Positions 7,318-35,213 of a stretch of DNA of 64,000 nt are shown piece after piece. The notes under the pieces are model-generated. The model made no database searches. It saw only the letters and a list, made by a program, of their open reading frames with translations, and was not told the DNA's origin. The DNA comes from a virus (lineage: Duplodnaviria; Caudoviricetes), in the IMG/VR virus record IMGVR_UViG_3300028048_000063, positions 32,001-96,000 of that record; one strand, 5' to 3'. The stretch's first letter is position 1. The number at the start of each line of letters is the position of its first letter. The position numbers were made by a program, and so were the translations under genes.

Positions 7318-8313
7318 TTATAACTCGATCTTCTCTTCTTCTGTTTTATTTTGTGCTTGTTTCTTGAGTTCATGATTCATGATACTCTCGTGATTTTCCA
7401 TACCTCTCCATTTATGAGATACGGCGTGTGTCTTGTTCTCACGTGTCCATAAAGAATAATATGGGCATAAGTTTTTACCAGCCTCTGGTTGATTTGGATT
7501 TGTTGGACAGAAATTACACCAATGACATAGTGGTGATGGGTTTGGTTCGTAATTACCCGCATCAATACCTGTGAATATTTCGTCTAACTTTTTCATACCA
7601 CGCTGCATAAATCCTGGCGTACCAGCTTTTTGTTTTGTTTGACAGAATGGTAAATCATAAAAACATTCTATATCTTCATATGGAACATTTAATGTTGTAT
7701 GCAGAGCATAAACATATACTACAAATTGTAATGGTGTCACAAGCTCTGCGTCTTTAAATAACTTGCCCTTTGTTTTAATATCTTCTACGATGTATTTACC
7801 AGTGTTCTTATTATAGAAAATTCTATCAATAAAACCACTGAGAGTATAACCATTATACGTTACTGAGAAGAATTTTTCCATATCATAGACTTCTAAACCA
7901 GGATTATCTTTAATATAATTTTCTAATCTATAAATACCAAAGTTTAAATAATCCTCTACCTTTGTATTATAAGAAACGCCATTGTCATCTGGTTCGTAAA
8001 ATTCTTCCTTATATTTTTCTTTTAAGATGTTTATTCCATAAACACCGCCCTTTGTATCATATGGTGATGTCTTAGGAATATTGATGTTATAAAATTCGTC
8101 TTTCAATTGGTCATAGTTTATTTCTTCATGATTTTTTAAGCTTCTAGCTATGCTTTCTTCTATATAGTGCAATGTCGTACCTAAATCTGCTGCTAATGAA
8201 TCAACATTAACAAAATGACCGTCAAGGTATGAAAGCTTGTATTTCCATGCGCAGCTATTGTAAACGTTTAGTCGTGAATACGAATATTTAACTGGCTTTT
8301 TATATTCTGCCAT
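7318..8313 (-). CDS. PD-(D/E)xK exonuclease, RecB/Cas4/AddB-like, with probable Fe-S staple
   Basis: SYSRL..Y..C, GTTLH, GFIDRI, EDIKT, QFVVY, and C-terminal CHWCNFC. Confidence 0.88.
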   Translation of the reverse strand: MAEYKKPVKYSYSRLNVYNSCAWKYKLSYLDGHFVNVDSLAADLGTTLHYIEESIARSLKNHEEINYDQLKDEFYNINIPKTSPYDTKGGVYGINILKEKYKEEFYEPDDNGVSYNTKVEDYLNFGIYRLENYIKDNPGLEVYDMEKFFSVTYNGYTLSGFIDRIFYNKNTGKYIVEDIKTKGKLFKDAELVTPLQFVVYVYALHTTLNVPYEDIECFYDLPFCQTKQKAGTPGFMQRGMKKLDEIFTGIDAGNYEPNPSPLCHWCNFCPTNPNQPEAGKNLCPYYSLWTRENKTHAVSHKWRGMENHESIMNHELKKQAQNKTEEEKIEL

Positions 8314-13580: not shown

Positions 13581-14216
13581 CTAGTTTTTATCTATATTTA
13601 AAAATTTTGAGTAAAAACTTTCTCCTAAGCTTGCTACTGGAATAAATCTTCCTTTTTCACCTGCTAAATGAATTACTCCTAATTTTAATTTTTCTTGATC
13701 AGATATATATCCTGATTGTACTGCCCCTCTTGCATATAAATTCAATTGAGCTGTGACGAGTTGACGGTGTATTGTTGATGTTGTCTTAAAGTCTGCTAAT
13801 GTTAATTCATTATTAACTGTACATAATAAATCAAAACGTCCTGCAGATACAGGGATATGGTTATCGTCATATAAGACTATGACCTTCTCTGTTAAGATAG
13901 GTTTGATCTTATATATTTCTTCTACAAAAGTAAAATAATTACTTGTTTCTTGATATGAAAAACTTAAAGGAATATCGGGACTTTCTTTACGCATCTCTAT
14001 CAATTCTTGTAATTCGTTATGAACGGCTGTGCCATAATCGGCGGCCCTCTTTAATACCTCTGGATTTACATTGGCATAAGGATTGCCATACACCTTTGAT
14101 AATAAAGTTGTAATACTTGGCAATTCCTTATCGTCAACGAAATACTGATGTGTCTCTGGATAAAAATCCACAGACACGCCAGTTGGTAATAGAAAAGTTT
14201 CTTTTTCTGTTATCAT
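13581..14216 (-). CDS. PD-(D/E)xK exonuclease (likely partner of Sak)
   Basis: H.Y....LPSITTLL, GTAVH, TEK, AGRFDLL, ADFKT, QLNLY. Confidence 0.85.
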   Translation of the reverse strand: MITEKETFLLPTGVSVDFYPETHQYFVDDKELPSITTLLSKVYGNPYANVNPEVLKRAADYGTAVHNELQELIEMRKESPDIPLSFSYQETSNYFTFVEEIYKIKPILTEKVIVLYDDNHIPVSAGRFDLLCTVNNELTLADFKTTSTIHRQLVTAQLNLYARGAVQSGYISDQEKLKLGVIHLAGEKGRFIPVASLGESFYSKFLNIDKN

Positions 14217-21674: not shown

Positions 21675-24600
21675 TTATGATCTACGCATATTTTTTGTTA
21701 AATTTGCTCTAGTCTTAATTGAATCAACAAACGCCTCAGCATCGAAAGATCCGTCAGCAGTTACGTTCATTGTAAGTGAATTAATATTAAATGATTCATC
21801 TACAACATCAGCTTGACTTGAGCCAATATGATCTGGCATAATTGATGGTCCAATGAGACGTAAAATTGCAGGAGCAACTTCGCCAAGAGCCCACAAATTC
21901 TTAGTAATATCAGCAGGAACTATACCTGTACGAGATGGCAAAGCTGTTATGGTACCAGAAGGAGTAATAATCGCTTCTGTACCAAGCTCATTAATTAATG
22001 ATGTTTGAATTCCATTAATTCCTAATGTTCCATATTTGTGTTCTTTAGCTGTATCTGAATGAACTAATCCGCCAGAAACCCAGTCAGTACCAACATTTTT
22101 TGCAACCTTGAGAGCAGTGTAAGAACCATCAGAATTTACTAATACATATTCATGACCACCAAGCATACCCCCAATAATCAGTTGTTGACCAGATGTTAAA
22201 GATACGTCTTGAGATAATTGCTTAAATAATTTTTCTGGGGTTCTGAGGTTCTTATAATCTTTCCACATATTGCGTCCTTTATAACCAGCAACCTCTTTTA
22301 AGTTATAATGGTTGACTGTCCCGTCTGCATTTAAAACAAAGGCAATTGCATTTTCCTCTGTTTGGAACCCATTTCCACCAGACCAAGCATCAGCACCACC
22401 ACCATGATCTTGAAAAATATCTTGGACAATCCAATTTGCAATACTTGTTGCTTCATTTTGCTCTGAATCGTAAAGTGTACGAACCCAATCCCCTTTATCT
22501 CCTAAATTATAAACAGTTGCATCATATTTTTCTAATCCAGTAGTTTGCGTTTTAGCACTACCTGCATTAATTACAGAAGCTTTCTCTCCTGGCTGTTTTC
22601 CAAAAGTAGATGTTAATCCTTCTGTTTCACTGTAAGAAATGTTGCTATATTGATCTTTATTTCCTTGATATTGATTTATAGCCGCAGCTTGGATTTGATT
22701 CATTGTTCCACCTAAAGATTCTGCCTTTTTTGCTTGTTTTTGATATTTCAACAATGCATCAGCAGTGCCAGTGTTTTCATACTCTAAAAGTAATTTTGCA
22801 GCCTCGTCAACTGCTTTGTTAGCTTGTTCTTCTTGTGTACCGAATTTATCTTCGAGCATATCTGATAGCTTTTTTACAGAACCTTGTGTTGCAGCTGATG
22901 CGCTAGCAAGTCCTGTCATATTGTTTTGGAAGCCACCTTCACCAGATTTAAGTATATATTCTTCAAAAGCTTCGCTTTCTTTACGTTGTAACTCTAAAGT
23001 TTGCTCTGCGTACATATTATCCCACTGATCTTTAATTGTTTGTAAAATATTGGTTTGCTGTTCAAGCATTGAGATTTGCTTATTTTGTTGTACATTTTCT
23101 AGATCTTCTTGAGCTTTAGCGATAGCGCCTTGGTCGGCTTCATATACGAAACCAACACCCGCTCTATACACACGTTGTTTTTCATTAAGAGCATTGTCTA
23201 GTCGTAATTGTGCTTCTATTAATTGATTTTGATATTCTCTTTGTTTATTTATTTCTTGTAAAGCTGATTTTTGAGCTTCTAAGTTAGACAATTGTTTTTC
23301 TAATTCTTTACTCTGTGTCTCTGCATATCTTTGTAAAAATTCTTTGTAGGCATCAGAAACAATATTATACTCATCACCAACTTCTTTAATAATTTGTTTA
23401 AGCTCTGTGACTCCAGATACACTTTCATCATATCCTAAGACTCTGTCCCACAATTTTTGTAAATTTTCTGCACCAATTGTTTCTATTAAATCTTCAATAT
23501 CTTGTGCTTTCTTAGCATCTGTTTCTCTTATTTTATTAATGCCAGACTTAATAGTGGCGTACCCTACATCGTCCTTAGTCTTTAATTCTTCATAGAAAGC
23601 GCTGGAATTCATAAGTTCACTAAATTGAGAATTGAATCCAGCCTCAATTAAACCACCAATCTTTTTCATAATTTGTTCCATTAATCGAGGAGTATCTGAC
23701 ATGTATGCGATAAGCTCTGGATATTTAGATACCAATTCACTCATCCATTTAGTAGCAGACTTTGTACTATCTGCAATTTCAGACATTAAAGAACCGTATT
23801 CTTCAATAGAAGTTACGTCTTCTGTTGTTGATTGTAAAATTTCAGATAATTTTAGCATTCCTTGAGAACTTTCCATGCTCGCAAGTTCGTCAACAGACAC
23901 ACCTAACGCATTTGCAAAGTTTTGTAAACGACGTTGTACATATTCGTCTGCTGCGTCTTGACGTAATGTTTCAGACAACGTATATGCTTTACCAGAAAGG
24001 ACTTTTTCAAAACCTTCGTCTGCTGCAGAAAGCTCAGACTCAATCATCTGTTTAGCATATTCTGTAACATCCCCGGCTGGATTATCTTTATCTGTAAACG
24101 TATAATATCCTTGTAAAGCACCACTTTCTAATAATTGATCAGCGACTAATTTAATAATAGTAGAGGCTCCAATATTCTTTTTTTGTTCATCAGATAATTC
24201 ATCTATAAAAGATCCAACTCCCGCTAAACGTTCTTCTTCTGTAGCTAATCTCCATTGATTTGTTTGTGAGTCTTTAATAAATTGAGCTTGTGCTATTGCT
24301 TCTCTTGTTCTTTCTTTATTAGTAGTTTTAATATTTTGTAATATCATAGAAGTTGTATCAGATATTACTGAAAGCATTTCATCAACGCTAGTTAGACGAG
24401 CCTCTGCCCCTTCTACTTTATTATCAATATCTTGTAATATTTGATTACGTTCGTTTCTAAGATCTTCTTCTTTTTCAAAAACATTTTTAGCATTCCATTC
24501 TTGGAATTCCTCTTCTTGTTTTTTAGCAATAGCTGCTTCTGTCTCTTTAGTTCCGATAGCTGCGCTACCAACAGTACTTAAGACAGCACCGCCAGCTAAA

Positions 24601-27600
24601 AGACCTGCCCCAAGCAATGCGCCGACACCCGTCGCCATTAAAGCTGTGCCTACTGCCATCATAGCCGCACCACCTACAGTAGCTGCTACTGTGCCTCCGT
24701 GGTTTTTACCACTTAAAGCATCTGCTTTACCTTCGTTGGAAAGTCCTGTAGCAGAGTCATATCCTTTTTGACCTTTTCTATATGCAAGATACTTATTTTT
24801 ACTTATATCAGTATTTTGTTGCTTGTATAATGCGGCTTCCCTTGCTTTAGCATTCGCTTCATTTTCTGTTTGTAATTGTGCTATTTTTAGCCTTCTAGCA
24901 GCATCTTTTCTCTCTTTTTCGTTACCGTTTTCATATTTATCTAATAAAGAATATACTGTTTCTCCTCCTAACTTTTGTTGTATTTTAAGACGAGCTTCTT
25001 GATTATCTTCATTATATAATGTTGATGTAATTGCTTCTATGGCTTCTCTCATTTTTTCTGAACTAAAGTTATCGTTAGAAGCAATATCAGATAATGTATT
25101 AACGCTACCTGAAATATCTTTCATAGCTGAAACAATTTTAGATGATTTTTCGGCTAATGTATCCATGCTGTCTTTGACGCGATCAATAGATGCCATTACT
25201 TTTTGAGCATGGGCTTCGCCAATAATCTGGCCCACAACAGGAACTAAAGTTGTCCATGCTTGAGCGATTTTACCACCTTGCTTACGTGCTGCTTCACTAG
25301 ATTGTACATCCTTCCCTTCTGCGTTTTTATGTGTCTGTCCAATCATTTGATATGCTGTCCATCCAGCCATAACTTGATTAAGAGCAATAGATGCGCCAGC
25401 TACAGCTGCACCTGCAGCAGCACCGCCACCACCAGCTTTAGCTACGCCTTTAGAGAAATTGGCTGATACTTTACCACGGAAGGTATTTGGAGATAATGCT
25501 TTTGAAGCTTTACCTGGTCCAATAGATCCAACAGATGCTGGCTGTTGCATATTCCAAATTTGGCTAGCTTTTTTAAGATCTCTATTTTTTAATAATGCTC
25601 CCCATGCACGAATTTTTCTAGTACGATATAATTGATTCTCTTTTGCAGTATTAGCATATTGTGTATTATAACGATCAATATCTGTCGCTGTTAAATTAGA
25701 CAAATCACCTTTTTCTTTTGCTGCTAATGTATCATTAAATTTAGATTGATAATATGCTTTAGCATGATCAGAAGGTGTACCTTTTTCTAAATCAGAATAA
25801 TATTGCAATTTAGAATCAAATACGCTATTAACAAGAGTGTTGTTTTTAGCACCAGTGCCCATATTTAATCCGGTTGAAACTACAGCGCCTGTATTATTAA
25901 CATTGTTAGCTTGCCCACCTGTGCCTAGGAAACCTCGAATACGTTGTTGTAATTTTTGACGCATTGTTAACGTATTATTCGATCCGCCACTTGTTAAACG
26001 TTTGGCTAAGACACCAGCTTCTCCTCTTAAGAACATTCTCATCTTGCTACCAAAATTTAAACCTTGAGGAAGATCTGATATTCTACCAAAAACATCTTTT
26101 CCTAAAATTTTATTTAATCCTTTAGCGATAAATGATTTGCCAGATAATGCTCTGAAGTTTTGTATAGTAAAGAAGATATTAACTAAATGCTTAATTAATT
26201 TTGGTAATAACTCGACAAGTTTAGTGCCAAATTTTACTATTTTTGTTAATAATTCATTGACCTCAGATCTGTTCATGAAGTCTTGCAATGCCGCGGTAAA
26301 TGAGTTTTTAGCTGCTTCAAAAGATTCTTGGTATGCATTACCATACTTCTTTTCAGCAGTACCTTTAGAATTTTCTGAAACTTCTAATAAATCTTCATAT
26401 TTATCCCAGTTTTGTAATAATGTTACGAAAGCTTCTTGTTGTCTAATACCAGCAAAAGCGGTAGCAACGGCTTTTTGAGAAACTCTATCTAGGGTTCCCC
26501 ATTTTTCTGCAATCTCACCTAAAACTTCGTCGAAATCTTTAAATTCAAGGTTACTCTTTCTAATAGAGATACCGAGTTTATTTAAAACTCTTTCAACATC
26601 GTTGATATTTACACTTTCATCTGAAGATTCAGAATCGACATTTAATTTACCATAAGCACCAGCTTTAACATTACCATAACGTGAAATAATAGTTTTTAAA
26701 GCCTGACCAGCACTTGATCCTGACATCTGTGTTACGTCAGAAATTGTTGCTACATATGCAGCAGCTTGGTCGATGTTTACACCTGCCAAACTACCTAAGT
26801 TAGCAAATTGTGCTAAACCTTGTGCAATTTCACCAGCAGATGTTGCTGCCTTCATATCAATAGCTGTTAATTTATCAACAACATCCATTGATTCAGAAGC
26901 TTGTAACTTGAACCCCTTCAACGCACTTGTTAAGCTTTGTGTTGCTGTAGAAGCATCCATCATACCTAACTTGCTTAAATACATTGAGGATTTAACAAGA
27001 TCAAGAACTTCTGCAGTCTCATAACCCTGTCTCAACCATTCTACAGCACTACTTGCAACTTCTGTTGTTGTTGCCCCTATAGCTTTACCAAGGTTTGCAT
27101 ACTCTGTAATTAAAGCTCTCGTACTTGTTTTACTATCACCAGTAACGATTCGCAAATTTGCCATAACTTTATCAAGAGCTATAGCTTGAGCGATTAACTT
27201 AGATATACTTTGTATTAATCTCCTTAAAACCATATGGAGACCATAGCCTTTGGCTAATCCAGCTACAGTTGCGCCGATTTTGCCTTCAAAACGATCAATG
27301 ACACCAGGTTTATTATTTAAGACTTTTAGTCTTTCACTATATAACAACCTAGCTTTATCTTCTTCTAAAGCATTTTGATCGTCTTTGCCTTCATGCTTAG
27401 ATTGTAATTCATAATTTTGTTTTTCTTGCTCTGCAACTTCAAGACGAGCTTGTAATTCTTCACGTTCGATTTGTAATAATCTTCTCTGTGTAGGATCTGT
27501 CGTTCTATTATAACTTTCAGTATTTTTATCTAAATTAAATAATGCTTCATAATATCCACCGTATGCCTTGAAAGCTGCTGATTGACGCTGTGTTTTTCCT

Positions 27601-30600
27601 TGTGCTATACCTAATTTAGTAAGTCCTTCTGCTGTTTGATCAACATATGCAGCATTTGGGGCACTCTTTTGAATATTATCGAGAATATTTTGTAATCTAG
27701 TTTTTTCTGCTTGTGTTAAACCTTTCTTAGTAGCTAAAACTTTTTGAATATTCTTTTGATAGCTATCGATATAGTTATTGATTTCTGTGTCTAGTGTATT
27801 CTTTATATTATTTAACTCTAACTCTAGTCTACTTCTCTCTTCTGGGCCTAGTATAGCATTCTCATCATTTAATTGTTTATCAATAATAGCATATCGTTGC
27901 TCAAGACTTGATTTTTGACTGTATAGTTCTTGTAAATCACTTAAGTTATCATATACACCCTGTTTCTTTTGTAATGCTTGGATAGTTTTTAATTTTTGTT
28001 TATATGTTTTAAAACTAGTAGTATCTCCACCGAGCGACTTATCTCCATATATAGCTTCTTCTCTGTCTATTATAACTTGATTTAAAGCAATTGCATCAGA
28101 TAGCGCTGTGATTTGTTCATCTATCTCACTAGTATCACGCCCATTCTTAGCTAAGCCTGTTTGTTTAATTTTTAATTCGTCTAACGCTTTTTGATATTTT
28201 ATATTTTCTTTTTGCGCTTTAAACCACTTATTTAGGCCGAATGTTCCTTGTCTGTGTTGTTGCTTCCAGTCATTATCTGTTGAGCTATTTATTACAGTAT
28301 TAAATCGTTGTTTAAACGTATCAAAGTCGTCAGTCATTAAAGAATGAACCAAAATTCCTGCATCTTTATCGCTTAAACCTATTTCTGTAAAACTCTTAAT
28401 CATATCTTGCTGTGAAGCAAATTTCCCCGCTCTAACGATACCTAAAGCTTCTAAAATACCATTAGTACCTTTGTTAGTGAAGAAATTATCACGCAACTGT
28501 GTTAACTCTGTTTGTTCCTCTGGGGTGATTGTATGATCCGCTTTTTTATCTTCTAAAGCGTTCATTCTTAATGCATCGTTTCTGTATTTCACCATAGCTT
28601 TATGGGCCGCTAATTGCTGAGCTTTTAATTGCGTTGTGGTACCGCTTCCTTGTGATGATACAGATGTAATATATTGTTGAACGTGTTGTAATGCTTGGAT
28701 TTGTTCTGCTTCGTCTTTATAAATAGCACTACTAGGATTTTTACGCATTCTGGCGAATATCTCTTGAACGAAAGGATCTTGAATGGCTCTCTTAAGATCT
28801 ACACGACTAGCTTCTGTAATACCAGTCATTGCACCTTTATTTAAGAATATTTCAATATCGTCTGCCAATCCAGCCATTGTTAAAATTTCTTGTACTGTCT
28901 TAGCATCTCCACCATTTAATGTATATAACGCTTCCCAGATATCGGCACCTTTACCAACTGATTTTCCATCAGTATAACCTCTGAAGCTACCTTTTGCGCC
29001 AAAAAGCGAGTCAAGAAGTTTTTGGTTCTTTTGAGTAATATGTCCTTTACCTGTCCTGGTATCAGTTCGAATTTTACGTAAAACAGATTTTTCTTGATTT
29101 GTTAATGTTTCTTCTAAGATACCTTGCAATCCAGTAGCCATAGAAGCATAGAACATTGTTTGTAAAATATTAGTTCCGGTCGGAGCCCCGGCTTTATTGG
29201 CAGTTTTAATATCCCCAATACTCCAAATTAATCTACCAGTTTGCTCAGCTTTAACCTGCGTTTGTAATTTATCTAAAACTTGTTTTTCATCTTTAGATAA
29301 TTTACTCTTATCTACACTAGCTAACGCTTTTTCTAAATTATCTCTTGATAAATTTTCAGTATCGCCAGGTACCCACTGATAAGCAGCAGCTTCTGCCGCC
29401 AATGATTGCCAATATGTTGAGCCAACATCTCGTCTCCCCCAACCAAAAATAGAATTATCAATACGGCCATAGCCTCTACCATAATCTGTTAAAGCCCCTA
29501 TCAGTCCAACTTCAGAACTAAACTTAGCATTTTTCAATGCCTTAGCGTCAATTGTTGTCCTACCTCCTTGGGTTTTAGTTAAACCAAGAGCTCTAATAGT
29601 ATTCACGGCTAATGATAAACCTAATTTTTTAAGATCATTTTCTGCATCTAAAAGATCAGAAGCCACACCAGTTGGATTATATCTCCTCATGACGTCAAAA
29701 TATTTTTTTATTTGTACGCCAGCACCACCATGGTCTTCTTTATCTTTTTGATTGGGTTTTTTATTCCACTTTGTGTTTAAAGTGGTACCAATCTTTTCAT
29801 TTAATTTCGTAACTTCATCATCCGTAATTGTATCAAAAAGACCTTTACTAAATATATCCATTAATTCAGCTGGACTTTCTAAAAGATCTTGTGCAATTTT
29901 ATGAGCAATATTACCTTTTTCAATAATTCTAAATGTATTTAAATATTGCTTTTGTGCTTCTAATGAACCAAAATCTAAATTTTTATCAACAATATCTCTG
30001 GTTTGTGCTTCATAATCGTAATGATTTTTGTTGTAATAATATGGTAATGTATTACCTAAAATACGAGTAGGGGTTAAAGCGCTCTTATCAAAATCGAAAC
30101 TCCCACCTTTAGCAGCAAAACCTTTATATGCTGCCATGGTATTTAATCCCATACTTCTACGATTAAATAATTGTTCAGTAGCTTGTTTATTTATTTCGTT
30201 TAATTCTAATTCTTGCTGTTTAAGACTTACGGAATCTAAATAGTCTTGTGTAAACCAGAACGTTTTACCATCGTCTGATATGATCGCCCCATTAGCAATC
30301 ATCTTTTGAATTTGCTCGTCAGTAAATCGACCATTTGGTCCAGCTGCTTTACCAACATTAAAAAACGTATTTTCTGAAGCTTTATAAATTGTAGCAGCTT
30401 TTGGTAAAATAGCACGCTTGTTAGCCCATATGTCGGTTAAAGATGCGGCCTTAATTGTTTTACCATTTTCACCTAAAATAGATATTGGATTTTTCTTTAA
30501 TGCACTATTTAAATAATCTACAGCATTGCCTATACTGTTTTCTGTTATTTTAATATTACTTAAAGCTTTTTCTGCTTTCTTTGGATCTATAAATTCATGT

Positions 30601-33600
30601 TGATCATTCATCTTTAGATCAGGCAATATACTCTTTAATGTATTACCATCTAACCCAAAAATGCTACCTAAACCGTTTAAATACCCTGTCTGATCTTGAA
30701 ATTTTTCGGCCAATAATAACATTTCAGCAATTGGCAAAATTCCCAATCTGGTTTGAGCTTGATCGTCCCCGAATAATCCTAATCTACCGCTTTTAAAAAT
30801 CCCAGCTTTTTGTGCTTTTTTAATAATGTTCTTAACTTTTGCACCGCTATCCCATGTGTTTTTATCATTGATTGCGGCGTATAAATCTGATAACTGACTT
30901 TCGAATCCAATTGCTTCATCTGCTGACATCTTTTTTGCAGATATACTCGCTTGTTCAAATATACTTAAAAAATGCCCTAATAAGTTTGATGCCGCAGAGA
31001 ACTTACTTTCTTCTGCCGTGCCCCATGACGATGACTTATCATGCATAGCATTCATGAATCCTTGACGAACATTACTAAACATACCAACATATGCCTTACC
31101 AGTCTTAGTTAAAATAACATCTCGTGCCTGGTCTTCTTCTGATGGGAATAAGTCCTCTAATGTTTTTTTATCTGGTGTCTTAGGACGTCCTTCGTTAAAT
31201 AAACGTTCGTATGCAGTCAATCTTGCTACAGTATCTTGCATAGCTTTTACTTTATCAAGCTGACCCGCACCAACAAGTGCACCAACAAGTGTGTCTCCAT
31301 CAAAGTCTGCGTTTAATAATCTAATTAAAGATTCATCACCGCCTACTATACTATGTTTTTCTTTACCCCATAAAGGGTTAACTAACAATTTTGCAGCTAA
31401 AACGTCTTTATCACCTAATAAACTTGGATATCTATTAAGCAAAACAGCTAAACCTCTAGATAAACTTTGGTCTGTACCTTTACCAAGAGTTATGCTATCA
31501 ATAATTTTATTTTTTAGCCAGCCTTGTTGAGATCTTACTAATCGTTTGTCAAATCCTTCTTTATCCTTATTTTCTTCTACAAATTTTTGTAATCCTGTGT
31601 CCATTTGGGCTTGTACTTCTTCTTTTGTTAAACCCATAATGTCCATATAGTAAGCCATTAATTGATCTGACCATCCTTCAACTTCACCTTCTGCTGGACT
31701 AAGAAGTTGATTCATCATATGTCTGGAGACAACTATAGCATTCTTTGTATATGCCTGTAAATTTGCATTTACATCTATAGGAACGCCAGCTTGTTGTGCT
31801 TGCGCTTGTCTCTGCATTATCTTATCATAATCAATTGTTGCAAAGTCAATAACTTTTCCTTGGAAGGAATGTCCTAAAGCAACTTTAGTAGCTTGGTCAT
31901 ATGTAGAAGAATCTTTTAATGTCAATTGTTCTAATTCTTTATCACGAAGTTCTTGAACTTTTTCTGCTGCTTTTGTTGCTATTTCTTTTCTATTTGTTCC
32001 AGCTACGCCGTTATTTTTAAGGTCAGCAACAAAATTATTAATAAAACTATAAATTCCAGGACCTGTTGCACCCAAATTAACTACGTCACCAACAGCATCT
32101 TTCCTAATATCGAAATCAAATGCTGGCAACAATAAGAAGTCATTTGCTATGGCTGTCTCATTATTTGGGAACATCATATTATCCCCGGCTTTAACTGCTA
32201 CAGGAATATATTTTGCGCCAGCTTGCATTTCAGCAATCTTTATTAATTGCTCTTTTGTATATTTATTATTTCCATAAGTATCTGTCTTTTCTAGATCAGC
32301 AACTTTTTGGTCAATATAAGCTTGCCCACCAGCTCGTTCTATCAATTCTTGTCGCTCTACGTCAGATAAATTTAAGAATGCTTCTTCTTGTTTTTTTCTA
32401 ATATCGTATAATAATGTTCCTGTAATTTTGTCTAACTTTGGTAATTTAGAATCTTGCGATTGTATTTCTTCACTATATACACCGTTTTTAATATCTTGTG
32501 CTAATTTAGTTATGTTTATATTCTTTAAAAATTCATCATTAATATCGTAAATAATTCCATGTCTGGCTCTAATACTACTTTCATTTGTGTCAATATCTTC
32601 TGCCATTTCTTGGATCATATTATGATATTCAAGCATTCCATCATATCTTTTACGGGATATCTCTGTGTCTCTAGATTTATCTCTGTAATACTTTCTCAAA
32701 TCACCCATATCTACATCAGATAATTGTTCTGTGAGATTAATCAAAGACATTAAGGAATTAAATTCACGATATCCATATCTAACAGGCATACCACCTTTAG
32801 ATAAAGGCATACCATATTTTTTACCAGCGTGTCCCATTAACATATATGAAAGGAATGCGTCGTCTGCATTTTCAATTCCAATAGTATTTTGGAGACCACT
32901 GTTAATAATATTAAACCATTGTTCAGGATTTAATGATATTGGTTTATCATTTTGTGTATATTTATAAGCAGAAGTACCGTTATAGGCTGTAGAAAAAGCC
33001 TCCATAAAAGCTGGGAAATATTTTTTAAATACTCCTCTAGCTGCAATTGCTTCTGGGCCAGACTGTTCAACGACTGTACCGTTTCCTACTTTATATAATG
33101 CATCCCAAGCATCTTGTAGTGCAGTTGATCCTTTGACAGTCAATCTTCGTTTAATTTCGTTAATAAAACCAGCAGGAGTTCTGTCTGAAGCAATAAATTC
33201 ACCCTTATCATTCTTTTCGGTGAGCATACGGCCATAAGCATCCCACATAGCTCCGATTGCAGAGTTGACTACATTTTTACTTTCTACGGCTTCTTTGTCT
33301 ATAATACCAGTAATGCTTTTGTTCATGTAAAAATCATCACTATGCCCACGAACTCGTGCAAGATATGGTAGTAATTCATTTAAATTAATAGAAGTACCTG
33401 TAGCACGTACTGTTGTACCTGGGGCAACATATTTCATACTTTGAGCACTATGTTTCCCATTATATCCTTGTAAAATACCAAAACTTGTGACACCAGAATC
33501 TTTATCAATATTACCAGCCAGCCAATCATTAACAAATGCGTCAATTTGATCCTCATATCTTTTCTTTTTAGTATTATATGTTGGTCTACCCAAACCGCTA

Positions 33601-35213
33601 CCAAAACTTAAAACATCTGCGCTAGGATTATATGTTTCTAAATCTGAAACATGTTGTTGCATAGCTTGTCTTACAGCTTTTTTAAGTAAAGCATCATCGC
33701 TTAGTTTGCTAGTATTATGTGCTTTTAATTTTTCAAATTTTAATTTAATAGCTTCATTGGCTAAAGATTTCGCAATAACACTACTTGCAGCAATTTCTTG
33801 TGCACGTTCTTGATCTAATATAATACCACCATTTTGTATACTAAGTACCAACTCTTTTTGTGCACGTTTTAATCTACTACTTAAAGCATTATATGCTGCT
33901 GGATCTAAAGCCTTGTCAACTGCGTCTCTCTGTTTAGTTAAATCGGCAACTCGCGCCTCTAAAGCATCATGCAATTCTTTTTGTGTAGCTTGAATAAATC
34001 TTGTAGTATCATATGCTTTTGAGTCTGGGTTTACTCCTAATCCACTTTGCTCTCTTTGTGTTAAAAATTTAGCTCCTTTTGTGAAAGCTTTTGAATTTTT
34101 ATCATTAAAGAAATTTTGTTCTGTTAATGTTGTCTGATATCCTTTTCTACTCTGTTTTGGTAGTAAGAAATTTAACATATGTGGCACATTATTTAAATAT
34201 GCCATAGTTAAACCATTAGAGTCAGAAACTGGACCATAGACTAAGTCCATTTTTGCTAATTGACCTAATGTATTTAATACAGGTACAGCCAATCTATAAT
34301 CATTTAGAATTGGCTTAAACTTACTATTACGTTTAATAATTTCATACCCCTTTTTAACACCAGAGGCAGATACAATTAACCCCATCTCGTTTAACAAACG
34401 AGTAGCTTGATCTTTTTTTACAGCTTGTTCAGCAAAGCTACCCTTGCCAGCATAATATTTATCAAGTATACCTTTAAAGAGATCTCCTAAATAAACGCCA
34501 GATTTTATAACGTCTTGTCTTTGTTGGCTTCCTTCTATCTTCATTGCGTCTTCTAGATCTCTCATTGTGGAAGCGTTATATTGAGACATAGCACTACCAA
34601 CATTTATAGCATTTTGAGTGCTGGTATTCATAATACGTTTAAGATCTTTTAATCCTTGGGCTGCTTGTACTTTATTTGCGGACTTAATCATCTTAATAGC
34701 TTCAATATTTTTTTCATATTGAAATTCTTGTAAGATATTATTAAGTGCGACTTCTGTGGCTCCTAATAATTTTAAGTTTCCTTCACCATCTGTTGCTGCT
34801 TGTAAAAGATTATTTCTTTGTTGGTTATTAAAATAAATAGTACCATGAGTATCTATTGGTAAGTTCCAAACTTGCTCTTTGATGCCCAATTTATTATAAA
34901 AGTCTTGATCACCATAAGGAAGAGGAACGAGTTGTAACATTGTGTTGTTTCCAACTTTTTGTGTTCTAACATTTACATCAATCCCGGCATCGTTTAATAT
35001 ATGTAGTACTTCTTCAAGCTTTGCTTTTGCAGATCCGCTACCACGCGTATCTAGTGCTTTTGTTATTATATCGATTTGCGATGAAGTACGTCCAGTATAT
35101 TTGGTCATATCTGTTGCTTTGTCTAAAGCATTTGTACCTTCGAGCGCTTGTCGTATCTCTGGATGTTTCCTAAATAGATCTTCTAGATCTCTATAATTTT
35201 CATTTTCTATCAT
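21675..35213 (-). CDS. Giant tape measure protein fused to an N-terminal two-barrel RNA polymerase and a PD-(D/E)xK nuclease-like domain (4512 aa)
   Basis: NRYPSL (aa 1260) and NADFDGD (aa 1301-1307). Nuclease-like GNIAH/GRID/DIKT/QxxxY at aa ~1767-2022. TP901-type TMP core at aa ~2680-2980 (GATTTEVASSAVEWLRQGY...VVDKLTAID...AGQALKTIISR). Gly/Ala hydrophobic segments, coiled coils and a TMP-type C-terminus (INELGTEAII). Confidence 0.88.
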   Translation of the reverse strand: MIENENYRDLEDLFRKHPEIRQALEGTNALDKATDMTKYTGRTSSQIDIITKALDTRGSGSAKAKLEEVLHILNDAGIDVNVRTQKVGNNTMLQLVPLPYGDQDFYNKLGIKEQVWNLPIDTHGTIYFNNQQRNNLLQAATDGEGNLKLLGATEVALNNILQEFQYEKNIEAIKMIKSANKVQAAQGLKDLKRIMNTSTQNAINVGSAMSQYNASTMRDLEDAMKIEGSQQRQDVIKSGVYLGDLFKGILDKYYAGKGSFAEQAVKKDQATRLLNEMGLIVSASGVKKGYEIIKRNSKFKPILNDYRLAVPVLNTLGQLAKMDLVYGPVSDSNGLTMAYLNNVPHMLNFLLPKQSRKGYQTTLTEQNFFNDKNSKAFTKGAKFLTQREQSGLGVNPDSKAYDTTRFIQATQKELHDALEARVADLTKQRDAVDKALDPAAYNALSSRLKRAQKELVLSIQNGGIILDQERAQEIAASSVIAKSLANEAIKLKFEKLKAHNTSKLSDDALLKKAVRQAMQQHVSDLETYNPSADVLSFGSGLGRPTYNTKKKRYEDQIDAFVNDWLAGNIDKDSGVTSFGILQGYNGKHSAQSMKYVAPGTTVRATGTSINLNELLPYLARVRGHSDDFYMNKSITGIIDKEAVESKNVVNSAIGAMWDAYGRMLTEKNDKGEFIASDRTPAGFINEIKRRLTVKGSTALQDAWDALYKVGNGTVVEQSGPEAIAARGVFKKYFPAFMEAFSTAYNGTSAYKYTQNDKPISLNPEQWFNIINSGLQNTIGIENADDAFLSYMLMGHAGKKYGMPLSKGGMPVRYGYREFNSLMSLINLTEQLSDVDMGDLRKYYRDKSRDTEISRKRYDGMLEYHNMIQEMAEDIDTNESSIRARHGIIYDINDEFLKNINITKLAQDIKNGVYSEEIQSQDSKLPKLDKITGTLLYDIRKKQEEAFLNLSDVERQELIERAGGQAYIDQKVADLEKTDTYGNNKYTKEQLIKIAEMQAGAKYIPVAVKAGDNMMFPNNETAIANDFLLLPAFDFDIRKDAVGDVVNLGATGPGIYSFINNFVADLKNNGVAGTNRKEIATKAAEKVQELRDKELEQLTLKDSSTYDQATKVALGHSFQGKVIDFATIDYDKIMQRQAQAQQAGVPIDVNANLQAYTKNAIVVSRHMMNQLLSPAEGEVEGWSDQLMAYYMDIMGLTKEEVQAQMDTGLQKFVEENKDKEGFDKRLVRSQQGWLKNKIIDSITLGKGTDQSLSRGLAVLLNRYPSLLGDKDVLAAKLLVNPLWGKEKHSIVGGDESLIRLLNADFDGDTLVGALVGAGQLDKVKAMQDTVARLTAYERLFNEGRPKTPDKKTLEDLFPSEEDQARDVILTKTGKAYVGMFSNVRQGFMNAMHDKSSSWGTAEESKFSAASNLLGHFLSIFEQASISAKKMSADEAIGFESQLSDLYAAINDKNTWDSGAKVKNIIKKAQKAGIFKSGRLGLFGDDQAQTRLGILPIAEMLLLAEKFQDQTGYLNGLGSIFGLDGNTLKSILPDLKMNDQHEFIDPKKAEKALSNIKITENSIGNAVDYLNSALKKNPISILGENGKTIKAASLTDIWANKRAILPKAATIYKASENTFFNVGKAAGPNGRFTDEQIQKMIANGAIISDDGKTFWFTQDYLDSVSLKQQELELNEINKQATEQLFNRRSMGLNTMAAYKGFAAKGGSFDFDKSALTPTRILGNTLPYYYNKNHYDYEAQTRDIVDKNLDFGSLEAQKQYLNTFRIIEKGNIAHKIAQDLLESPAELMDIFSKGLFDTITDDEVTKLNEKIGTTLNTKWNKKPNQKDKEDHGGAGVQIKKYFDVMRRYNPTGVASDLLDAENDLKKLGLSLAVNTIRALGLTKTQGGRTTIDAKALKNAKFSSEVGLIGALTDYGRGYGRIDNSIFGWGRRDVGSTYWQSLAAEAAAYQWVPGDTENLSRDNLEKALASVDKSKLSKDEKQVLDKLQTQVKAEQTGRLIWSIGDIKTANKAGAPTGTNILQTMFYASMATGLQGILEETLTNQEKSVLRKIRTDTRTGKGHITQKNQKLLDSLFGAKGSFRGYTDGKSVGKGADIWEALYTLNGGDAKTVQEILTMAGLADDIEIFLNKGAMTGITEASRVDLKRAIQDPFVQEIFARMRKNPSSAIYKDEAEQIQALQHVQQYITSVSSQGSGTTTQLKAQQLAAHKAMVKYRNDALRMNALEDKKADHTITPEEQTELTQLRDNFFTNKGTNGILEALGIVRAGKFASQQDMIKSFTEIGLSDKDAGILVHSLMTDDFDTFKQRFNTVINSSTDNDWKQQHRQGTFGLNKWFKAQKENIKYQKALDELKIKQTGLAKNGRDTSEIDEQITALSDAIALNQVIIDREEAIYGDKSLGGDTTSFKTYKQKLKTIQALQKKQGVYDNLSDLQELYSQKSSLEQRYAIIDKQLNDENAILGPEERSRLELELNNIKNTLDTEINNYIDSYQKNIQKVLATKKGLTQAEKTRLQNILDNIQKSAPNAAYVDQTAEGLTKLGIAQGKTQRQSAAFKAYGGYYEALFNLDKNTESYNRTTDPTQRRLLQIEREELQARLEVAEQEKQNYELQSKHEGKDDQNALEEDKARLLYSERLKVLNNKPGVIDRFEGKIGATVAGLAKGYGLHMVLRRLIQSISKLIAQAIALDKVMANLRIVTGDSKTSTRALITEYANLGKAIGATTTEVASSAVEWLRQGYETAEVLDLVKSSMYLSKLGMMDASTATQSLTSALKGFKLQASESMDVVDKLTAIDMKAATSAGEIAQGLAQFANLGSLAGVNIDQAAAYVATISDVTQMSGSSAGQALKTIISRYGNVKAGAYGKLNVDSESSDESVNINDVERVLNKLGISIRKSNLEFKDFDEVLGEIAEKWGTLDRVSQKAVATAFAGIRQQEAFVTLLQNWDKYEDLLEVSENSKGTAEKKYGNAYQESFEAAKNSFTAALQDFMNRSEVNELLTKIVKFGTKLVELLPKLIKHLVNIFFTIQNFRALSGKSFIAKGLNKILGKDVFGRISDLPQGLNFGSKMRMFLRGEAGVLAKRLTSGGSNNTLTMRQKLQQRIRGFLGTGGQANNVNNTGAVVSTGLNMGTGAKNNTLVNSVFDSKLQYYSDLEKGTPSDHAKAYYQSKFNDTLAAKEKGDLSNLTATDIDRYNTQYANTAKENQLYRTRKIRAWGALLKNRDLKKASQIWNMQQPASVGSIGPGKASKALSPNTFRGKVSANFSKGVAKAGGGGAAAGAAVAGASIALNQVMAGWTAYQMIGQTHKNAEGKDVQSSEAARKQGGKIAQAWTTLVPVVGQIIGEAHAQKVMASIDRVKDSMDTLAEKSSKIVSAMKDISGSVNTLSDIASNDNFSSEKMREAIEAITSTLYNEDNQEARLKIQQKLGGETVYSLLDKYENGNEKERKDAARRLKIAQLQTENEANAKAREAALYKQQNTDISKNKYLAYRKGQKGYDSATGLSNEGKADALSGKNHGGTVAATVGGAAMMAVGTALMATGVGALLGAGLLAGGAVLSTVGSAAIGTKETEAAIAKKQEEEFQEWNAKNVFEKEEDLRNERNQILQDIDNKVEGAEARLTSVDEMLSVISDTTSMILQNIKTTNKERTREAIAQAQFIKDSQTNQWRLATEEERLAGVGSFIDELSDEQKKNIGASTIIKLVADQLLESGALQGYYTFTDKDNPAGDVTEYAKQMIESELSAADEGFEKVLSGKAYTLSETLRQDAADEYVQRRLQNFANALGVSVDELASMESSQGMLKLSEILQSTTEDVTSIEEYGSLMSEIADSTKSATKWMSELVSKYPELIAYMSDTPRLMEQIMKKIGGLIEAGFNSQFSELMNSSAFYEELKTKDDVGYATIKSGINKIRETDAKKAQDIEDLIETIGAENLQKLWDRVLGYDESVSGVTELKQIIKEVGDEYNIVSDAYKEFLQRYAETQSKELEKQLSNLEAQKSALQEINKQREYQNQLIEAQLRLDNALNEKQRVYRAGVGFVYEADQGAIAKAQEDLENVQQNKQISMLEQQTNILQTIKDQWDNMYAEQTLELQRKESEAFEEYILKSGEGGFQNNMTGLASASAATQGSVKKLSDMLEDKFGTQEEQANKAVDEAAKLLLEYENTGTADALLKYQKQAKKAESLGGTMNQIQAAAINQYQGNKDQYSNISYSETEGLTSTFGKQPGEKASVINAGSAKTQTTGLEKYDATVYNLGDKGDWVRTLYDSEQNEATSIANWIVQDIFQDHGGGADAWSGGNGFQTEENAIAFVLNADGTVNHYNLKEVAGYKGRNMWKDYKNLRTPEKLFKQLSQDVSLTSGQQLIIGGMLGGHEYVLVNSDGSYTALKVAKNVGTDWVSGGLVHSDTAKEHKYGTLGINGIQTSLINELGTEAIITPSGTITALPSRTGIVPADITKNLWALGEVAPAILRLIGPSIMPDHIGSSQADVVDESFNINSLTMNVTADGSFDAEAFVDSIKTRANLTKNMRRS

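Follow-up and report, generated by a model that had tools for sequence, protein, structure and literature searches.

A probable RecB-family nuclease domain between the putative RNA polymerase and the tape measure of a giant phage protein

The stretch of DNA analysed here (the window: 64,000 nucleotides, positions 32,001 to 96,000 of the 150-kb IMG/VR virus record IMGVR_UViG_3300028048_000063; Duplodnaviria, Caudoviricetes) carries a giant open reading frame (ORF), P0001, in which a putative two-barrel RNA polymerase is followed by a tape measure protein. Between the two, residues (aa) about 1707-2040 probably form a diverged RecB-family PD-(D/E)xK nuclease domain of the PDDEXK_1 type, without an iron-sulfur cluster, which would be delivered together with the polymerase; this assignment is drawn from sequence comparisons. 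The identification could not rest on the sequence of the window alone, and came from positional homologues in distant giant proteins that also join a polymerase to a tape measure. The parts of P0001 are as follows, in window coordinates.

21675..35213, minus strand: giant ORF P0001, 4,512 aa, uninterrupted; putative two-barrel RNA polymerase, then nuclease domain, then tape measure
31293..31313, minus strand: NADFDGD, aa 1301-1307 (exact match), in the putative virion RNA polymerase, metal-binding motif of its beta-prime-type double-psi barrel
29094..30095, minus strand: probable RecB-family PD-(D/E)xK nuclease domain including two inserts, about aa 1707-2040, delimited by hhalign to the compact domains of relatives and by sliding windows
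30060..30077, minus strand: N-terminal motif LTPTRI, aa 1713-1718 (TPTRI, aa 1714-1718, at 30060..30074)
29901..29915, minus strand: motif I helix GNIAH, aa 1767-1771 (KGNIAH, aa 1766-1771)
29535..29858, minus strand: insert 1, helical, aa 1786-1893, from AlphaFold helices and alignment
29502..29516, minus strand: SEVGL, aa 1900-1904, predicted strand beta1 with conserved E1901
29457..29468, minus strand: motif II GRID, aa 1916-1919, putative catalytic D1919
29244..29438, minus strand: insert 2, helical, lineage-specific, in the beta2-beta3 hairpin, aa 1926-1990
29202..29216, minus strand: motif III GDIKT, aa 2000-2004, putative catalytic D2001 and K2003
29148..29162, minus strand: motif IV QTMFY, aa 2018-2022 (QxxxY, the RecB family hallmark)
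26451..27095, minus strand: tape-measure core, Pfam PF10145 PhageMin_Tail, aa 2707-2921 (E = 7.6e-30)

The original prediction, made from the sequence of the window, had named six motifs in this region, and all six were located in the 4,512-aa ORF exactly as given; its assignment of the series to the RecB/Cas4-type PD-(D/E)xK nucleases is now supported by the positional homologues, by one of these passing the PDDEXK_1 model and by an alignment that runs through every motif. The catalytic set is complete (H1771, E1901, D1919, D2001, K2003 and Q2018/Y2022), the last pair lying within LQTMFYA (aa 2017-2023, window 29165-29145). The RecB/AddB/Cas4-type nucleases of PF12705 have the same motif order, namely an S/T-P-S/T start, the G-x2-h-H helix, the beta1 glutamate, G-x-h-D, h-h-D-h-K-T and QxxxY, and nearly the same spacing. 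In P0001, 15 residues separate E1901 from G1916, equal to the 15 in a stand-alone nuclease encoded elsewhere in the window, and 15 separate K2003 from Q2018, versus 16 in the stand-alone protein. The counterpart of TPTRI is SPTGI or TPTGI in the distant relatives and SYS in the stand-alone nuclease. Cysteines are absent from the nuclease domain of P0001 and of its relatives, so that the four cysteines of the Cas4/AddB type are missing and the domain is not of that iron-sulfur type.

In order to gauge how often such a series arises by chance, a generic RecB pattern (G-x-h-D ... h-x-[DE]-h-K-[ST] ... Q-x3-Y), derived from the stand-alone family and not from P0001, was used. This series, which covers motifs II, III and IV, arose in 6 of 2,000 shuffles of P0001 that preserved its composition, and in none of 2,000 when the G-x2-h-H helix of motif I was added; within the window it occurred only in the giant ORF and the stand-alone nuclease, among 59 ORFs of at least 100 aa, and it was present in all 120 homologues of the stand-alone nuclease that were scanned. 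P0001 has only two close homologues in a collection of 5.8 billion protein clusters, P0002 (4,580 aa) and P0003 (4,426 aa); the nuclease stretch is just 17-23% identical across the three, yet every motif residue is invariant. Rare in shuffles and invariant in homologues, the motif series is real and beyond chance.

A search of IMG/VR in which the query was the conserved core of the tape measure (aa 2640-2960) recovered distant relatives, namely L126 (4,123 aa), L128-L131 (3,771-3,801 aa) and L127 (2,697 aa); a further protein, L144, was reached by a second hop from L128, at 33% identity. The relatives have the tape-measure core (41-56% identity) and the C-terminal region in common with P0001 and, L127 apart, also a DxDGD motif at aa 1230-1303; the catalytic region of L131 aligns to P0001 residues 1246-1478 (E = 5e-5). 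In every polymerase-bearing relative (L126, L128-L131 and L144), a compact RecB series lies between DxDGD and the tape-measure core; in L144 it reads LSPTGI ... GTLAH ... SEIGF ... GGKIDALY ... VGDYKTG ... QAQMY. The L144 copy passes the Pfam PDDEXK_1 model (E = 3.2e-6, 27.7 bits against a cut-off of 22), and PDDEXK_1 is found in 24 of the 30 Atlas clusters nearest to it; the L126 copy has PDDEXK_1 as its top Pfam match, below the cut-off (E = 0.0024, 18.3 bits). The nuclease domain was present in all nine of the polymerase-bearing sequences examined, from four lineages. Each of these keeps the glycine and histidine of motif I, the motif II D (D1919 in P0001), DxK (D2001 and K2003) and QxxxY, although the surroundings have diverged to 20-30% identity. 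Polymerase and nuclease modules appear, from these sequences, to be present or absent together in this tape-measure family. L127 (L127:6554-14644), whose core is 41% identical, has neither the DxDGD motif nor the nuclease.

The window's domain was aligned directly with the compact domains. In an alignment of eight sequences (MAFFT E-INS-i), the key residues of motif I (G and H), motif III (D-x-K) and motif IV (Q-x3-Y) fall into shared columns throughout. When the untouched alignment of P0001-P0003 was compared with the compact domains by hhalign, two independent, collinear local matches were obtained, one over the C-terminal half with motifs III and IV (P = 3.8e-4) and one over the N-terminal half with TPTRI (P = 3.9e-4). 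Removal of insert 2 (aa 1926-1990) gave P = 6.7e-5, and removal of both inserts (aa 1786-1893 and 1926-1990) gave P = 1.3e-7 (probability 94%, 155 columns), a best value that depends on insert borders chosen by the analyst. The untouched comparisons are significant on their own, and shuffling controls for composition; 40 column shuffles scored 20.3 or less, against 55 observed. The pairings between P0001 and L144 are TPTRI with SPTGI, GNIAH with GTLAH, SEVGL with SEIGF, GRID with GKID, GDIKT with GDYKT and QTMFY with QAQMY.

The match is also specific in its position. When sliding windows were run over the whole of P0001, the best four of 59 all fell in aa 1587-2106, with scores of 35.2, 33.6, 28.0 and 20.3; the next best scored 17.3 and the mean was 14.5. 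The four best local matches between the N-terminal 2,760 residues and the relatives were collinear, comprising the tape-measure core (P = 1.4e-14), the polymerase catalytic site (3.8e-6) and, more weakly, a second block of the polymerase (0.011) and motifs III-IV of the nuclease (0.029). Against the stand-alone family, hhalign was collinear through all motifs at P = 0.023, and at P = 0.001-0.005 with the inserts removed (overall range 0.001-0.03); here the candidate windows were the best of 59 by a narrow margin only.

What sets the domain of P0001-P0003 apart is its two large inserts, which are missing from L144, L126 and L128-L131. An insert of about 80 residues between D and DxK had been predicted; 81 residues separate GRID from GDIKT in P0001, and the gap is 75-85 residues in P0001-P0003 versus the normal hairpin of 12-21 residues in the relatives, which indicates that the P0001-P0003 lineage acquired a helical insert in the catalytic hairpin. 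Insert 1 is some 60 aa longer than the matching segment of the relatives, the helical region before beta1, and the modules of the relatives are about 110-130 residues shorter than the P0001 domain overall. Unlike the members of PF12705, the domain sits within a 4,512-aa virion protein, has an 81-residue hairpin insert and an enlarged helical region before beta1, and is too diverged to score on the PDDEXK_1 model, whose match the two inserts split. Within insert 1 lies an invariant EDHGGxGxQI block (aa 1826-1835, window 29709-29738), for which neither a counterpart in the compact relatives nor a family match was found. An alternative motif II, D1981 in VLDKL, was suggested by MAFFT and rejected; the position is D, E or A in the three homologues and falls within a confidently predicted helix.

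The flanking parts of P0001 resemble a tape-measure-fused polymerase, in that a DxDGD polymerase motif and a PF10145 tape-measure domain stand in the same ORF. The tape measure makes up the C-terminal 60% of the protein, with PHROG tape-measure families across aa 2346-4288. On the polymerase side, NADFDGD is preceded by LLNRYPSL and is invariant in P0002 and P0003; the sole Pfam match of aa 1200-1400 is RNA_pol_Rpb1_2, the beta-prime catalytic domain, below its cut-off (E = 0.012), and in the three-way alignment polymerase conservation stops near aa 1500. A phmmer search of the polymerase part against PDB sequences and a tblastn search of aa 1-1660 against GenBank phages gave no match. Cysteines number zero in the 4,512 residues of P0001, zero in L128-L131 and one in L126 (about 3,800-4,100 residues each).

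A fusion of RNA polymerase and tape measure is known from gp96 of the Thermus phage P23-45 (Chaban et al. 2024, PMC10770324), for which transcription of the first genes during DNA entry has been proposed, and that work established that a tape measure can carry a working polymerase into the cell (PMC10770324). Like P0001, gp96 has a DFDGD-type two-barrel polymerase on the N-terminal side of a giant tape measure; unlike P0001, it has no RecB motifs anywhere and no match to the hidden Markov model (HMM) of the domain, and a nuclease is not mentioned in the gp96 paper (PMC10770324). BLASTP of P0001 against gp96 gave only an 8-residue match, DFDGDTLV (E = 3.9), and the host and phage lineage of P23-45 are unrelated to those of P0001, whose neighbours look SPbeta-like. 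Judged by their sequences, the two would be analogous or very distantly related architectures and not members of the same family. The original prediction had held the triple fusion to be undescribed; this stands for the nuclease, absent from both gp96 and the paper on it, but the fusion of polymerase and tape measure as such was published in 2024 (PMC10770324). Full-text literature searches returned no paper on a nuclease inside a tape-measure-fused polymerase. The nuclease family and the type of fusion are both known; their combination is undescribed, and its form here is unusually decorated.

The crAss-like (phi14:2 gp66) and N4 virion polymerases resemble the predicted P0001 product in being giant, packaged in the virion and delivered with the DNA, and differ from it in lacking a fused tape measure. 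A scan of IMG/VR for NADFDGDT gave 119 loci, mostly crAss-type virion polymerases; the motif series was present in none of the crAss-type polymerases recovered, and the domain HMM matched none of the 29 complete ones. When the N-terminal 2,400 aa of P0001 were compared with crAss-type polymerases by hhalign, the only match was beta-subunit-like (aa 320-366, P = 4e-5), and the crAss-type polymerases consequently do not define the C-terminal border of the P0001 polymerase.

Besides the analyst's choice of insert borders and the narrow margin against the stand-alone family, a number of results weigh against the nuclease assignment. Pfam searches of P0001 and its sub-segments gave no nuclease match even at E up to 10, the P0001 domain did not reach the PDDEXK_1 gathering cut-off (22 bits), and a six-frame search of the phage genome with that model detected only stand-alone nucleases and not the domain of the giant. 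PHROGs, searched with the whole protein and with sub-segments, contained nothing for the nuclease domain; neither phmmer nor a three-sequence profile matched it among PDB sequences, and an HMM of the stand-alone family had no match in P0001-P0003. Structure prediction was likewise of little help. From an alignment limited to P0001-P0003 (nuclease-family sequences were kept out as circular), AlphaFold2 reached a mean predicted local distance difference test (pLDDT) score of 57.6, compared with 36 for AlphaFold on the single sequence, and was confident only for the helical inserts; the segments that bear the motifs, aa 1899-1933 and 1990-2037, stayed below 50, so that the model gives neither the fold nor the clustering of D1919, D2001 and K2003. 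Moreover, gp96 works without such a domain, activity could suffer from the 81-residue insert in the catalytic hairpin, and the packaging, ejection, substrate and activity of the nuclease are all predictions from sequence.

The inserts themselves were modelled as all helical, insert 1 at pLDDT 56-91 per 10-residue block (mostly above 70) and insert 2 at 73-89 over aa 1940-1989. Foldseek with the three-sequence model had no match in the PDB at E up to 0.001, and Foldseek and VIA returned generic helical matches to the inserts only. Other sequence searches were equally empty: an exhaustive phmmer search with aa 1660-2160 among 1.84 billion representatives recovered the query itself and nothing else, and the A1 profile matched only the domain in the phage's own genome; no match came from tblastn of the domain against GenBank phages, from the three-sequence profile against proteins of 696-2,000 aa, or from the domain or polymerase alignment run on contigs from viruses, metagenomes and genomes. 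BLASTP of the P0001 domain against the stand-alone nuclease gave E = 97, and the best score of an Atlas feature search with the P0001 domain was 0.75, which is uninformative.

That the segment is something other than a nuclease, such as part of a long polymerase tail, is nevertheless very improbable and already largely refuted. The failure of every direct family search and the want of a usable structural model would suit it, and since crAss-like virion polymerases have about 700 residues past DFDGD, a long tail is conceivable; against this stand a motif series that shuffles rarely reproduce and that keeps its order and residues unchanged from lineage to lineage, the homology (P = 1.3e-7) to a domain validated by Pfam, the lack of the series in crAss polymerases and gp96, and the end of polymerase conservation near aa 1500. 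It seems unlikely, too, that the domain is homologous to RecB but does not cut, and acts instead as a DNA binder or scaffold, keeping the entering DNA at the polymerase or spacing the polymerase from the tape-measure core. Such a loss of function could be read from the large helical insert within the beta2-beta3 catalytic hairpin and the second, enlarged insert, from a divergence too great for any family model to detect the P0001 domain, and from the position after the motif I histidine, often E in the family and Q in P0001-P0003; dead domains, however, usually lose their active-site residues, and here H, D, DxK and QxxxY are invariant in nine sequences of four lineages. A catalytic set conserved under such strong divergence argues for an active enzyme.

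An active enzyme might also work on RNA, and process, trim or terminate the transcripts of the fused polymerase, which we consider improbable. Viral polymerases, such as those of influenza viruses and bunyaviruses, can carry PD-(D/E)xK domains that are RNases, and in the present family the domain is always next to a polymerase, with both lacking from L127; its QxxxY motif set, however, is that of the RecB/Cas4/AddB group, whose characterised members act on DNA, and bacterial messages have no caps to snatch.

As a probable DNA nuclease, the domain would be a working metal-dependent enzyme that, at infection, exits the virion along with the putative polymerase and the tape measure and acts where the DNA enters; it would be co-delivered with the polymerase because it forms one chain with the tape measure, as proposed for gp96 (PMC10770324). 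There it may resect or nick the entering phage DNA and thereby furnish single-stranded template for the fused polymerase. This template-making role is a guess which, among the options for an active nuclease, we prefer while giving it a minority share, and it is prompted by phi14:2 gp66, which in vitro transcribes single-stranded or denatured but not double-stranded DNA (bioRxiv 10.1101/2020.03.07.982082). The main alternative to it is an attack on host or competing DNA. We would go further only with considerable doubt, and propose that the nuclease is a functional partner of the polymerase, the two constituting a self-contained N-terminal cargo that, as the tape measure opens the channel, makes its own template from the leading end of the incoming genome and transcribes it; such a partnership would explain the recurrence of the nuclease beside the polymerase in several giant tape measure proteins that are unrelated to one another.

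Tape measure proteins have long been viewed as passive rulers and channel formers. The conserved nuclease that lies between the polymerase and the ruler, in this lineage and in no fewer than three others checked, suggests that such giants serve to inject several enzymes at once. A role in template preparation would bear on how virion polymerases with a preference for single strands can begin on a genome that is double-stranded. An attack on host DNA would make the nuclease a weapon, an enzyme that enters the cell along with the first millimetres of phage DNA. There is a practical lesson as well, in that two inserts masked the domain from every direct family search and recovery was possible only through positional homologues.

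The original prediction had also spoken of stand-alone nucleases in the window with the same motif series. One of the two candidates is clear, and the other gives a sub-threshold match only.

7318..8313, minus strand: stand-alone PDDEXK_1 nuclease, 331 aa, with a cysteine cluster, used here as the comparator (Pfam PDDEXK_1, E = 7e-21)
13581..14216, minus strand: 211-aa ORF with a weak, partial PDDEXK_1 match (E = 0.004, 13 bits, below the cut-off)

The former has more than 500 homologues, mostly on large uncultured phage contigs. Its conserved cysteines, C21 and a C-terminal PLCxxC...LCPY group, recall those of the Cas4/AddB-type iron-sulfur nucleases.

Several further observations concern the wider tape-measure family. 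In L144 (L144:7250-8100) the tape measure frame ends with TAA right after ...ANEWLN, inside the conserved core, and a Cys-rich ORF (CDFCGK...CCQNCRK) lies downstream of the stop in another frame; the interruption may be an intron or a homing-endonuclease insertion. On L004, the contig of P0003, the genes downstream of the giant ORF include members of SPbeta families (YorF and YorH) and one for a DnaB helicase, and from its gene content the P0001-P0003 lineage looks SPbeta-like. SPbeta itself encodes its polymerase, YonO, and its tape measure in two separate genes. Lastly, aa 2701-2900 (window about 26514-27112) are 87-95% identical across P0001-P0003 together and 88-97% identical between P0001 and P0003, versus mostly about 10-55% over the rest of the protein; the high identity of the tape-measure core suggests either a recent exchange of this segment or extreme constraint.

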